Positions 41,740-45,038 are shown, numbered from the stretch's first letter. The stretch is 64,000 nucleotides of DNA from an uncultured Planctomycetota bacterium (GCA_963845755.1 CAWJTV010000005.1:480001-544000); one strand, 5' to 3'. The notes: a model not told the origin generated them from the sequence alone. Numbers and translations: made by a program.

Positions 41740-41840
41740 TCGAGCCCTCCCATCGCCCCTCTGGTGCTCAACCTCACGGCTTGGCAGGCGGAACCGCTCG
41801 TTCGGCCGTTCCAGGTCCCGGCATCGTCCAGCGCCCACCT

Positions 41841-41868
41841 GTCCGGCTCAACTATGGATCACCTGTTA
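41841..41868. repeat. dif-like cassette-boundary site F
   Basis: GTCCGGCTCAA-CTATGG-ATCACCTGTTA with conserved upstream GCATCGTCC.GCGCCC. Confidence 0.7.
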
Positions 41869-41947
41869 CAGATTCTGGAATCGCGCCGCGCCCGCAAAAC
41901 AGGGTCAACAATGATTCAGAATTGCCACTCTTGGCCCTCGATGCGGG

Positions 41948-42670
41948 TTAGTTCAGTAGATAATAGTCCAGACAGAAATACTTGTCGTAAGATTCGCTAC
42001 ACAGCTCCAGAAAACCGGAGAACGAAGGGGCTAATGCAGTGATCCGATGTTCCTCATGGAGAATCCACGCCGTTTGGTCATCGGCTTTGCGAAGCACCAT
42101 GTCGCCTCCCAACGTCGTGTGGAGAATCAACGCATCGAACCATTCTCTAATCATAGGTCTGAATTCCGGTTCAAAGTCGTCTTCTTCCCAGCCAAGCGCC
42201 CGGAACGATTGCCACTCTTCAGGCCGCTCGAAGTTGCCAGCGGATACCGGGCGCTCCCTCACCCCGTGAAAGTGGTTGTAGAACTCTCGGATCAGATCGA
42301 ATCCAGCGAGGTCCTGATTTGCCAGGCATTTCTCCAAGACCACCGGATGCAAGGGAGCTTCGATGTAGACCGTTCCATCACGATCTTCATCTTCATCCCG
42401 ACGATTGAGTCCCAAGTACCATTGCGTGCCGTCCTGGGCCAAGGCGAACGGGCGAAACTTCAGAAGAACGTCACGGAAACGCGCCACGCTGGGATAGCGG
42501 ATGCTAGCCCATTCCATCGAGAGGGTCCGGATGATCTCAGCAGCGTTCCGCCCGATCCAACGCTTCATCCACGGTGTGAGTCCTTCGGTGGATGGCAGAT
42601 CGGTGAATTTGCACGGCAGCGCATACTCATCCCACGCCCACTGTCCTGAAGGGTCGATCTGAACTCGCAT
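41948..42670 (-). CDS. Hypothetical protein with SMI1/KNR4 (SUKH)-like C-terminal half
   Basis: AAGGAG RBS; LIREFY...GGDMVL...WILHE...LAPSFSGFLE pattern. Confidence 0.65.
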   Translation of the reverse strand: MRVQIDPSGQWAWDEYALPCKFTDLPSTEGLTPWMKRWIGRNAAEIIRTLSMEWASIRYPSVARFRDVLLKFRPFALAQDGTQWYLGLNRRDEDEDRDGTVYIEAPLHPVVLEKCLANQDLAGFDLIREFYNHFHGVRERPVSAGNFERPEEWQSFRALGWEEDDFEPEFRPMIREWFDALILHTTLGGDMVLRKADDQTAWILHEEHRITALAPSFSGFLELCSESYDKYFCLDYYLLN

Positions 42671-42845
42671 CTGACCTGCTCCTTGTGACCTCCAAACTGA
42701 CCGACGTCCGCCGCGGGCACAATCAACCATGGAAAGAGTCGAGCAAAAGCCCCAGCATCGCCGAGTGGGCCGTGGCCACCCTACCACGATGGTCCCTTGG
42801 CCCTCCGTTTGACTCTGCCACTGATCGCCATCCGCCGAGCAACTG

Positions 42846-42873
42846 ACAAGCCTCAATAATAGTTCAGCCGTAC
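42846..42873. repeat. dif-like cassette-boundary site E (diverged)
   Basis: ACAAGCCTCAA-TAATAG-TTCAGCCGTAC. Confidence 0.5.
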
Positions 42874-42965
42874 CACGTCTAGTCCACGCACCCGCACCCG
42901 TTTTGGTTCACGAATCGATCCACCAAGATAGCGACCTCGAGGCCAGCGGCGGGCCGCTACAGGTG

Positions 42966-43403
42966 TCAGGCGTTCAGCCTGGTAAGAGGGGCTCGGTATC
43001 GTTCGGCGACATCGCCGTAGATCGCGATATCTGGCTCGTACCGGTCGAAGTTCTCCAAAATTTTGATGATCCCTTCGCGGATGAGTTGCCCGACCGGGGC
43101 GACCTCGGCGGGCTCGTGATCCAGGCGGAACTCGATGACGCTGCAGAACGAACTGACTGCATCGGTGTCTTTGTCGGCCTGCTCGCTTAATAGATAATCG
43201 ATGGCGGCTGGTACGTAGAATCGAAAAGCGATGGGGCCCATCCACATCAAGTCTTCCTGGGATACCAGGAAGTTTTCGCGAAACAACGCCTCGGCTTGCT
43301 TCAACTCCTTGCCGAGGAAATGCTCGACTGCAGTTCGCTCATCGAGAGAGTCAAAGAGGTTGATCTCCGCCGCATTCGGCAGATGCGCGTCAGTCCGTAA
43401 CAT
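42966..43403 (-). CDS. Hypothetical acidic protein (DUF6714-like, possible immunity protein)
   Basis: EDLMWMGPIAFRFYVPAAIDYLL motif. Confidence 0.7.
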   Translation of the reverse strand: MLRTDAHLPNAAEINLFDSLDERTAVEHFLGKELKQAEALFRENFLVSQEDLMWMGPIAFRFYVPAAIDYLLSEQADKDTDAVSSFCSVIEFRLDHEPAEVAPVGQLIREGIIKILENFDRYEPDIAIYGDVAERYRAPLTRLNA

Positions 43404-43496
43404 GGATTGCTTTCGAGGCCGCCGCATTGATCACCCCTGACAAGTCTCATGGCTTGATCATCCGTTCCACCTTCACCCATCGTTCCACGCCGCGGT

Positions 43497-43524
43497 GTCC
43501 GCGCCAACTATAGTTCAGGCGTTG
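43497..43524. repeat. dif-like cassette-boundary site A
   Basis: GTCCGCGCCAA-CTATAG-TTCAGGCGTTG. Confidence 0.8.
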
Positions 43525-43528
43525 CAAA

Positions 43529-43732
43529 CTACGCGGCGGGCCTCGGTTTGCTCCACGCCAGATAAGTTCCGGCGCCGATAAGTAGGATGCCCCAGGCGGC
43601 GAGCCCGTTCACATCGTTGAACATCCTGCGGCCATCAGGATCGGCAACCGATGAGAGCAAGTACCAGAGGAGGACCAAGGCGCCACCGACGACCACCGAT
43701 ATGATGCCCGCGATCTTGTAGACCCACTGCAT
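43529..43732 (-). CDS. Small two-TM membrane protein (67 aa)
   Basis: GGAGG RBS; two hydrophobic helices. Confidence 0.7.
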   Translation of the reverse strand: MQWVYKIAGIISVVVGGALVLLWYLLSSVADPDGRRMFNDVNGLAAWGILLIGAGTYLAWSKPRPAA

Positions 43733-43868
43733 TGAGCCCTCCTGACGACTGTAGCCCATTCCTTGTCATCCGGGGCAGTCGCATGGCCCGGACCTCCGCG
43801 ATGACAGACTCGCAAGCCTCGTTTCTGGACCGGCCGTCCCAGCTTTCTGCATCGTCCCGCGCCCGACT

Positions 43869-43896
43869 GTCCGCGTCAACTATAGATGAACGGATG
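43869..43896. repeat. dif-like cassette-boundary site B
   Basis: GTCCGCGTCAA-CTATAG-ATGAACGGATG. Confidence 0.8.
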
Positions 43897-43909
43897 CGTT
43901 CCCGGACGG

Positions 43910-44782
43910 TCATTTTGGCCCCAGCGAGTCGGGTGGGACGGAAAGCCAGCGAAGTGGTCCGCAGTAATCGTACCCGGCCCCGCTCCTTCGGACCGAGATC
44001 CGATACTGATGGTCTAATTCCACGCCCTCCTGGGAGGGGCTGTGGATCGCGAGTTGGAATGTCTCCATCGGCAGGCGGCCCTGGATCACCTTGTCGATCT
44101 TGAGGGTCACGACCCACCCTAGGCGTGGATCGAGTGTGGCGCCGCCCACGTTGTCGATCCTCGTGACGGTACCGAGGAAAACCGTCTCCTCCAGACTCTT
44201 GAAGGATGAATAAATAAATTCACTATGGAATTTAAACTCATAATGCCACCAAATATGGGCGACCGTCGGCGGCGGATTCGGGCCACTCAATGCATCATCC
44301 CGGACTTCGCGAGGAGTGCCGCGGAAGCCCCCCGACTCGCAGCCACGCATCTCCCAGACTGGCCCTTCCTCTGCTGGTATATCCTTGGCGCCCCAGGTTT
44401 TGGAGAAGAAGTCGAACTTGACGGGTGTCTCTAATCTCTTGCCATTGACGCTCGTGACAGAAAAGTACGGCGTATCATCCTTAGGCGGCTGGTTGGGGAG
44501 CCCACGAGGTCGAATCCACGAACCCTGGATCGTGACAAGTTCCCCCAGGGGATATCCGAGGCGACCGATGATCTGGACTCGCGTCCCGATGTCGGACGCG
44601 AGCACCTTCTGCACCGGGGGCTGGACTTCGATCGGTCCCGCGGGGGCTGCACCCGAGGAATCGCGGGGGAAGTTTTCGGCCCTCTTCCGCGAGGTCTTTT
44701 CCACTTGTCCCTCTGCCATCAATCCTGCGAGCATCAGGACCCCGATCGCCGCGCCGGCGAACGCCCAATTCTGTGCCTTCAT
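43910..44782 (-). CDS. Secreted hypothetical protein
   Basis: GGAGG RBS; signal peptide; IIGRLGYPLGELVTIQG motif. Confidence 0.75.
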   Translation of the reverse strand: MKAQNWAFAGAAIGVLMLAGLMAEGQVEKTSRKRAENFPRDSSGAAPAGPIEVQPPVQKVLASDIGTRVQIIGRLGYPLGELVTIQGSWIRPRGLPNQPPKDDTPYFSVTSVNGKRLETPVKFDFFSKTWGAKDIPAEEGPVWEMRGCESGGFRGTPREVRDDALSGPNPPPTVAHIWWHYEFKFHSEFIYSSFKSLEETVFLGTVTRIDNVGGATLDPRLGWVVTLKIDKVIQGRLPMETFQLAIHSPSQEGVELDHQYRISVRRSGAGYDYCGPLRWLSVPPDSLGPK

Positions 44783-44868
44783 CACAGGCCCCTCCGTCCG
44801 AAACGGCTCAATCAGATGCTGTCTCCGGTCCACCCGTTGCAGATTCCCGCATCCTCCCGCGCCCTCCC

Positions 44869-44928
44869 GTCCGCGCCAACTATAGTTGACCGTGTCCACT
44901 TTCTGCCACCGTCCCGCGCCAACTATAA
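44869..44928. repeat. dif-like cassette-boundary site C plus partial site D
   Basis: GTCCGCGCCAA-CTATAG-TTGACCGTGTC, then TCCCGCGCCAA-CTATAA. Confidence 0.8.
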
Positions 44929-45038
44929 CTCGCTCGTCACGTTCTTGATTGGGTGGGCAGGCCGGGTAATGGCCGGAGATTAAGGCCCAGCCCACACCAA
45001 CCAAGCCGATAAGGAGGGGAGAAAGGACGCCAAGGGGA

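Follow-up and report, generated by a model that had tools for sequence, protein, structure and literature searches.

How do unrelated genes come to stand in one orientation, one by one, between copies of the same short repeat? The question is raised by an array of four such genes in a 64,000-nucleotide stretch of DNA (C5:480001-544000; "the window" hereafter means this whole stretch) from the genome of an uncultured Planctomycetota bacterium (G000; 14.27 Mb, 49 contigs, 64% G+C). A first-pass annotation, made from the sequence alone, had proposed mobile single-gene cassettes inserted at short duplex sites, and this idea stands up well: cassettes are shared across arrays, genomes and genera, and their homology ends in a 6-bp spacer. 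We consider it about 80% probable that the array in the window is one among many in which mobile single-gene cassettes are gained, lost and swapped through conservative site-specific recombination at short duplex sites. This is integron-like gene capture in soil planctomycetes with large genomes, without integron sites or an integron integrase, and with exchange between genera.

To our knowledge, integrons are the sole well-understood bacterial platform that captures single genes one by one. If our reading is true, the arrays described here represent a second and mechanistically unrelated platform, found in many soil planctomycete genera with genomes of 8-16 Mb and equipped with duplex sites, a central crossover, a leader of its own and perhaps a serine recombinase. 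Gene-capture arrays would then have arisen more than once in evolution. Such arrays may also help explain how very large planctomycete genomes gather accessory genes, and short duplex sites with a programmable central dinucleotide are of the kind used for genome engineering. The literature on planctomycete gene cassettes, Isosphaeraceae integrons and integron-like Xer/dif arrays, judged by titles and abstracts, held no description of this system.

The comparison set consisted of 100 other sampled genomes of the same family, including a congener (G020) and a member of another genus (G070); genomes, contigs and loci are numbered with G, C and L. The window's first 9 kb had no match at E<=1e-30 in G020, G070, G011 or G071, and rpoB identity was therefore taken as the yardstick of divergence between genomes. 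By this measure G000 is 87% identical to G070, 90% to G011, 91% to G071 and 94% to G020.

A paired duplex site and its leader

The recurrence of a motif of about 50 bp in one orientation, which the first-pass annotation had reported, is real. With up to three mismatches, the core GTCCGCGYCAACTATAG is found on the plus strand at 41841, 43497, 43869, 44869 and 44912, five matches against 0.22 expected, and none of 100 shuffles reached five. A repeat search recovered four 72-nt copies (41793-41864, 43449-43520, 43821-43892 and 44821-44892) with 65-76% identity to the reference copy. All genes of the window array lie on the minus strand. Read in gene orientation, each repeat separates a gene's stop codon from the start of the gene that follows, and each interval holds a single co-oriented gene, as had been claimed (Table 1).

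The site itself is an imperfect palindrome, in which a 13-nt left arm (TGkAAnnnnTGAt) and a 13-nt right arm (aTCAgaCTTkCA) enclose a 6-bp spacer. Alignment of the ~100-nt unit reveals an internal direct repeat: the full unit carries two sites in direct orientation, 56-58 nt apart from start to start (57 nt in five of five window cases). In the first (L) site the spacer reads C(C/T)ATAG, and most units show here a non-canonical right arm, TTGGCGCGGAC, with GGCGCGGGACGATG after it; the second (R) site combines the spacer CCAGAG with canonical arms. Junctions between cassettes take one of two forms, either the ~100-nt two-site unit or one solo site without connector, the latter found in the window and at C12:136971. 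Variant units on C39 and C48 have a fully palindromic L site and a different filler. The L arm region contains TAA, TGA and TAG across the three frames, and upstream open reading frames (ORFs) often terminate there.

This anatomy modifies the earlier description of an 11-6-11 site. The 6-bp spacer with its two arms stands, but the arms are 13-6-13 and the full unit is a pair of sites 57 nt apart; the left arm given at the time, GTCCGCGYCAA, is the reverse complement of the first site's right arm in gene orientation. The two irregular copies listed with the motif are also genuine. However, the one at 42846, called diverged, is a solo site lacking the 57-nt connector and so different in kind, and the one at 44912, called partial, is a first site in degenerate form with a truncated connector behind it, and forms the upstream end of the window array. 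At the other end, the last junction holds two tandem connectors of 57 nt each, and its L site (41839-41870, spacer CCATAG) scores 27.1 bits.

A 19-nt site matrix gave 73 matches in the genome at >=18 bits, against 4 in reversed and complemented controls, and these often form plus/minus pairs 31 nt apart. Spacer positions 3-6 are conserved among sites. Sites with the TTGGCGCGG arm have a central AT in 57 of 74 cases (left-arm-only matrix), and those with canonical right arms have a central AG in 55 of 117 and AT in 26 of 117, most others being the same sites read on the reverse strand. When 121 sites with canonical right arms were compared, 59% of arm positions paired, against 61% in 500 partner shuffles, indicating no covariation, and arm positions 8-9 differ systematically, with GG in the left arm and TC in the mirrored right one. 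Given both observations, the site has the symmetry of a protein-bound duplex with two arm flavours.

A nucleotide profile (nhmmer), seeded with the window copies of the unit and iterated over the contigs of the genome, found 33 copies at E<1e-4 (about 33-38). These form ~14 clusters spread over 11 contigs; within each cluster all copies share one orientation, which is also that of the flanking genes. The family was surveyed with a sequence-only covariance model by scoring up to 39 candidates per genome, so that the counts are lower bounds. The unit is present in at least 28 of the 100 other genomes and in at least 16 of 53 genera, counting that of G000; almost all unit-bearing genomes measure 8.5-16.5 Mb, and most have at least 9-40 copies each.

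Most arrays have at their upstream end a conserved leader of ~245 nt in array orientation. It contains additional arm-like boxes and ends in a core site (GGTGTAAAGCCTGGACT AG AGATCAGACTTGCCAG), after which the first gene follows. Twelve of the 20 leader copies in G000 have a same-strand unit <=4.3 kb downstream, and leaders stand at array heads in loci of G092, G011, G055, G020, G048, G035, G066, G037, G071 and G045, among others; a partial copy is present in G083. The leader profile found no match in the part of C5 where the window array has its upstream end. A structured-RNA nature of the leader was rejected, since RNAalifold placed 0 consensus pairs on 18 leaders; Rfam gave no relevant match in window positions 38000-48000 nor in three leader loci. 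In a separate locus (L079, G048:C4:2168000-2187000), Rfam finds five Acido-Lenti-1 RNA copies at 3788-4724, three of them above the gathering score, ~3 kb upstream of a leader.

Exchange of cassettes and the probable point of crossover

When 17 kb around the window array was compared with G020, the sole long near-identical match was mobile unit A (Table 1), which is 93.2% identical over 1002 bp to G020:C33:197503-198504 in a different context. The neighbouring cassettes in G020 have no counterpart in the window array, and the flanks of that locus have relatives elsewhere in G000, on C11, C48, C25 and C39, at 85-91% identity. Both ends of the match lie inside CTATAG/CCATAG spacers. To the right of the L-site spacer everything is shared, including an idiosyncratic connector and R site; the left arm and the sequence upstream are unrelated. 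At the downstream end, the shared stretch stops after the CTAT of the next spacer.

Mobile unit B is 96.8% identical over 665 bp to a locus of G070 (L035:1826-2489), a member of another genus. Its upstream break is preceded by CT in one host and by TC in the other, with ATAG following in both, and its downstream break comes after CTAT. Given the 87% identity of rpoB between the same two genomes, the cassette in G070 is a recent transfer between genera.

These two cases are part of a wider pattern. An all-against-all BLAST of 47 array loci, restricted to high-scoring segment pairs (HSPs) of >=80% identity and >=250 bp between different places, gave 23 HSPs, ten of which cover cassettes on inspection (G000-G011, G011-G071, G000-G071, G055-G055, G000-G000, G029-G092, G092-G032 twice, G000-G070 and G000-G020). 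Most ends of these ten lie <=16 nt from a spacer centre; the remaining 13 are leaders, the recombinase region, insertion sequences or gene families. Within G000, a 151-aa cassette is present on both C12 and C39.

The junctions also indicate where within the spacer the exchange may take place. At upstream junctions, spacer positions 1-2 differ between hosts and follow the unshared left side in five of six cases, the sixth being identical. Two downstream junctions are informative: here the hosts share positions 1-4, and positions 5-6 follow the unshared right side. Only an exchange at the two central bases fits both patterns, and the best fit is a crossover at the central dinucleotide, which would be AT in L and solo sites and AG in R and leader sites.

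The mobile unit, as we read it, spans the interval between the centres of two successive L sites. It comprises the connector and the R site, then the gene with its 5' leader, and finally the left arm of the following L site. If such a unit were closed into a circle, one L site would be rebuilt, and movement would proceed through this circular intermediate. Exchange also takes place in a second register, at R sites and the leader core site, so that gene modules can sit directly behind the leader. This register is directly visible in one gene module, which stands behind the leader in G071 (...TGTAAAGCCTGGATT AG AATCCACC...) and behind an R site in G011 and G000 (...TGTAACGGGTGATCC AG AATCCACC...), with the break directly after the central AG. 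The orthologous leaders at G000:C48 and G020:C33 are 84.6% identical, and their homology is lost at the core-site spacer; the two congeners carry different cassette sets behind them, which supports the mobile cassettes of the first-pass annotation, and a third leader (G071) continues differently again.

Regarding cassette content, we scanned 96 ORFs taken as lying between units or leaders: 4 from the window, 23 from other G000 arrays (picked from 73 ORFs scanned there) and 69 from other genomes. For about three quarters of them, Pfam assigns no family. The pool thus consists mostly of unknown proteins, with repeat proteins (LRR, WD40/PD40, ankyrin, TPR/HEAT) and families proposed as immunity proteins (Imm5_like, E 5e-30; DUF6985; DUF1877; a sub-threshold SUKH-1 in the window) among the rest, and it is subject to recent horizontal exchange. 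Other cassettes belong to AhpC/TSA, GDSL lipase, BamE, DUF1559 and ECF sigma factor families. An immunity role for the cassettes is only a lead. The related idea of polymorphic toxins, with toxin tips borne by large upstream genes and immunity encoded by the arrays, found no support among the six upstream proteins scanned, which are one serine recombinase, one CARDB protein, one hydrolase and three without family.

Table 1. Features of the cassette array, listed from its upstream to its downstream end (window positions; PWM, position weight matrix).
Feature	Position	Strand	Details
Degenerate first site	44910-44941	-	CGTGACGAGCGAG TTATAG TTGGCGCGGGACG, then truncated connector; PWM 8.7 bits; core with 3 mismatches
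Junction unit 1	44810-44898	-	L 44867-44898, spacer CTATAG; connector 57 nt; R 44810-44841, spacer CCGGAG
Cassette gene 4	43910-44782	-	290 aa, no Pfam family
Mobile unit A	43882-44883	-	Right half of L1, connector, R1, gene 4, left half of L2
Junction unit 2	43810-43898	-	L 43867-43898, CGCATCCGTTCAT CTATAG TTGACGCGGACAG; R 43810-43841, spacer CCAGAA
Cassette gene 3	43529-43759	-	76 aa, no Pfam family
Junction unit 3	43438-43526	-	L 43495-43526, TGCAACGCCTGAA CTATAG TTGGCGCGGACAC; R 43438-43469
Cassette gene 2	42966-43427	-	153 aa; weak DUF6714 match, E 0.0077, under family cut-off
Mobile unit B	42859-43523	-	Connector, R3, gene 2, left half of solo site
Solo site	42844-42875	-	TGGTACGGCTGAA CTATTA TTGAGGCTTGTCA; near-palindromic 13-6-13 without connector; PWM 16.3 bits minus, 12.3 plus
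Cassette gene 1	41948-42670	-	240 aa; weak SUKH-1/SMI1_KNR4 match, E 0.0049, under family cut-off
Last junction	41782-41927	-	Degenerate site 41896-41927, degenerate connector, L 41839-41870, connector, R 41782-41813
Gene behind last unit	40803-41739	-	DUF1559 pilin-like; two ORFs, 41551-41739 and 40803-41546

The candidate recombinase and the competing explanations

A large serine recombinase acting in trans is our candidate for the enzyme, with a chance that we put just short of even, given the junction pattern and a neighbouring gene. On C48, a 736-codon frame with Resolvase, Recombinase and Zn_ribbon_recom domains (L023:2580-4790) lies directly upstream of a leader, is co-oriented with the array and ends inside the leader. 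The catalytic motif ..VYVRQST.. is present, and the NCBIfam matches, to XisF, CcrA, CcrB and CcrC, are weak and far under the cut-offs. Remnants of this gene flank leaders in G020 (C33 and C9), G071, G048:C4 and G087, with very short remnants in G055 and G032, and at G000:C29 its left end alone stands 540 nt from a leader. Altogether, the gene or its remnants, mostly the latter, are found beside one leader subfamily in at least six genomes; the family is multi-copy and its presence is not universal. The element that carries the recombinase in G096 has a left end (AGATCTGCGACAGAATGCAAC) directly adjoining a site-like left arm plus AT. For the right end of the serine-recombinase element, no inverted copy of the left end was found in the 1.5-kb flanks.

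Large serine recombinases act on pseudo-palindromic sites with a crossover dinucleotide and bipartite half-sites that are read by two domains, and only the central 2-bp overlap must match between partners (PMC3783163). The junction pattern and the two-part arms (TGkAA, four free bases, TGAT) agree with these published properties. One could go further and regard the system as a serine-recombinase counterpart of the integron. Its platform would consist of a large serine recombinase gene and the 245-nt leader with an AG-centred docking site, and gene and 57-nt connector modules would alternate between two site classes kept apart only by AT or AG, giving two independent registers in which single genes would be inserted, excised and reshuffled between genera of soil planctomycetes with large genomes. 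We offer this fuller picture tentatively, with the odds somewhat against it. As a side observation, the large serine recombinase family is multi-copy in G097, G077, G096 and others, with up to 10 scored copies per genome, some of them identical. In-frame TGA or TAG codons, one or two per copy, are present in many of these at seemingly recurrent places; such copies could be pseudogenes or cases of programmed read-through.

Several points weigh against the explanation that we prefer, most of them concerning the enzyme. The C48 frame has a 2-nt deletion after about codon 7, compared with orthologs that start with ATG behind AAGGAGG. No leader lies within 1.5 kb of the close orthologs in G083, G096 and G048:C3, which are 78-82% identical. 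Several array-rich genomes have only ~50% identical paralogs, which are multi-copy, frequently contain in-frame stops and are also found in genomes free of units. Because of these leaderless orthologs and distant paralogs, the gene may be a passenger element that once landed beside a leader. The central-dinucleotide crossover draws on ~8 informative junctions, and spacer positions 3-6 are conserved in any case, so that a tyrosine recombinase with a 6-bp overlap may be at work instead. The connector holds a possible, weak promoter (TTGGCG-N17-GACGAT); a consensus sigma-70 scan gave 2 promoter-like sites against 1.0 expected, neither inside a unit. Finally, no circular form or excision junction was seen in four public runs, whose contigs are short (about 110-970 nt, or 150-360 nt by a second figure) and match cassette parts or the conserved unit alone. 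One apparent joint in these contigs, from 41835 to 43497, was rejected as a match of another unit copy. None of the public runs listed as matching the window was recorded as RNA, and each shared at most 0.17 of the sampled sequence words.

The foremost competing explanation retains the array as described and assigns its movement to a trans-acting tyrosine recombinase of lox/FRT/Xer-like type with a 6-bp overlap. Inverted arms in a 13-6-13 arrangement around a 6-bp spacer are the classical core architecture of tyrosine recombinase sites, the genome encodes 43 matches to PF00589, and the arm flavours TGTAACGGGTGAT and TGCAAAGTCTGAT recall XerC and XerD arms. We nevertheless find such an enzyme rather unlikely. 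The first-pass annotation had named XerC/D or an island integrase, and neither is borne out: tblastn found no PF00589-type gene in the array loci fetched from other genomes, and the two integrases of the window were rejected as the enzyme, their paralogs being limited to C5, C25 and C14, none near any other array. The tyrosine recombinase family of C33:211080-212048, a fragment of which lies beside the C29 mini-array, was rejected as a marker since it occurs in 72 of the 100 family genomes, unit-bearing and unit-free alike. On C6, close to a leader fragment, recombinase-in-trio elements were likewise set aside, no inverted repeat or site linking them to the arrays. In addition, recombining spacers differ at positions 1, 2, 5 and 6 and some are chimeric, which is awkward if overlap homology is needed.

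The same annotation had called the sites Xer/dif-type, and here the architecture holds and the sequence does not. Sites of the Xer/dif type (dif, pdif, IMEX) consist of a XerC arm, a 6-bp spacer and a XerD arm TTATG... Using short dif core motifs, we located a family of dif-like sites in this genome, reading ..GATAAT-N6-TTATGTTCG.., which has nothing in common with TGkAAnnnnTGAt-CyAkAG-aTCAgaCTT. The dif-like sites (..ACGTCYGATAAT-N6-TTATGTTCG..) lie on C40 at 96689, 108021, 123504 and 131800, and at C24:7807, C41:370871 and C39:272953. With its four sites and several tyrosine recombinase genes, C40 may be a plasmid with Xer-type modules, and one of the sites outside C40 may be the chromosomal dif.

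Shuffling of cassettes might also need no dedicated recombinase, if the ~100-nt units served as substrates of ordinary homologous recombination. The window's units show 65-76% identity over 72 nt, and units far outnumber any candidate enzyme. We judge this quite improbable, given that the breakpoints at inspected junctions fall in the 6-bp spacer and are not scattered over the unit, that the break lies at the edge of the left arm even though no part of the unit is less conserved, and that 32-nt solo sites serve as boundaries too.

A further possibility is that the unit is merely a shared promoter or operator, the signal of a regulon, and that the cassette look is a by-product. The unit is always upstream of and co-oriented with a gene start, its promoter-like connector is followed by a palindrome at a possible operator place, and a gene for an ECF sigma factor (39528-40343) follows shortly downstream of the window array. 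However, a regulatory signal leaves unexplained the identical cassettes in unrelated contexts across genera and the end of their homology in the spacer, as well as the solo sites, the tandem connectors and the conserved leader at array heads, and the promoter scan mentioned above found nothing in the units; we give it little credence, a shade less than homologous recombination.

G000 also has classical integrons. On C41 (locus L019, G000:C41:1-19000), an integrase with SAM-like and catalytic domains is encoded at 17539-18672 (plus strand), and at least five attC sites (CTAACG...GCGGCCCGCGGAGCGGGCCCGC...CGTTAG, ~60-nt hairpins unrelated to the unit sites) lie between 11671 and 17026. Duplex-site units continue in line with the integron from 11584 down to 2844, so that two unrelated cassette systems abut. 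The attC core consensus is GTTRRRY. That our sites are decayed or minimal attC used by the integron integrase is extremely improbable, despite this placement directly downstream of an integron and a faint resemblance of the first site's GTTG, divided after its G, to the attC core, given the unrelated hairpins on C41, the lack of pairing covariation and a crossover in the site centre in place of the outer core (between G and TT of R'); the claim of the first-pass annotation that the sites are not attC hairpins is confirmed.

Known systems and the surrounding DNA

Cassette arrays moved by site-specific recombination, as we read those described here, share features with several known systems. In organization they resemble integrons and clusters of attC sites lacking integron-integrases (CALIN). 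There, too, the cassettes are co-oriented, mostly carry one gene each and differ in function, which is for the most part unknown; every junction has one recombination site, a conserved platform heads the array, cassettes are shared between genomes, and many arrays have no recombinase nearby (PMC4889954, Cury et al. 2016). In contrast, the planctomycete arrays have no attC hairpin, IntI or attI and are headed by the 245-nt leader, and their sites, duplex palindromes of 32 bp, come in pairs with 57-nt spacing, with a central crossover and a connector per cassette. True integrons coexist in G000 and are clearly distinct. The system works like an integron or CALIN, yet differs from them in each defining character.

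The rAID-1 clusters of Bacteroidales are co-directional arrays of small orphan-immunity genes with repetitive intergenic sequences "reminiscent of integrons", and are recognized by a tyrosine recombinase that is XerD-like, lies 5' and is >44% identical to that of B. fragilis (bioRxiv 10.1101/471110). Long co-directional arrays are common to both, and some cassettes here fall into Imm5_like, DUF6985, DUF1877, weak SUKH-1, LRR, ankyrin and HEAT/TPR families. Unlike the rAID-1 clusters as portrayed there, no planctomycete array among the fetched loci is headed by a tyrosine recombinase, and about three quarters of the cassettes have no family.

In the staphylococcal cassette chromosome (SCC) with its Ccr recombinases, and in TnpX/TndX elements, tandem cassettes lie between short direct repeats, form circles and are moved by a large serine recombinase with crossover at a central dinucleotide; elements of the SCC or TnpX type without their own enzyme are moved in trans. 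The likeness holds if a serine recombinase is the enzyme here, and the candidate, whose matches to XisF and to the Ccr proteins stay so far under the cut-offs, is not a member of those families. SCC uses one chromosomal target and is multi-gene, whereas the system described here has single-gene cassettes in many arrays per genome, dozens of sites that fall into two classes, and a leader.

The pdif modules of Acinetobacter plasmids, which are bounded by XerC/XerD sites, are likewise described as small gene modules at short duplex sites in varied contexts, with the enzyme in trans (PMC9771954, PMC7399989). However, pdif sites as presented there are true relatives of dif in alternating orientation, whereas the sites here are all direct, have longer arms and are unlike the genome's dif-type sites. 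With loxP/Cre and FRT/Flp our sites share 13-bp inverted arms, a short asymmetric spacer and the reversible recombination of identical-type partners; they differ in a 6-bp spacer with variable outer positions, two arm flavours and pairing of sites, and no Cre- or Flp-like gene is linked to the planctomycete arrays. The likeness to dif, pdif and lox sites is one of architecture only.

The whole window appears to be accessory DNA. Two phage-type integrases, at 29378-30793 and 57477-58931 (both on the minus strand and 52% identical to each other; a third copy, on C25, is 84% identical), bracket ~27 kb that contain the array, three transposase genes and the ECF sigma factor gene (31628-35213 is also listed for the region). 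The DUF1559 pilin-like gene behind the last unit is split by a stop at 41546-41551 into 62 and 247 codons, which makes it either a broken gene or the product of a sequencing error. Just upstream of the array, at 45035-45158, a 47-nt repeat (GGGAGTGAAACAGGGTCGCAGCTAGTTTTGTACTCGAAGATGGAGTT) stands in three tandem copies, and one soil-metagenome contig has one copy fewer, joining 45068 to 45116 with 47 nt skipped.

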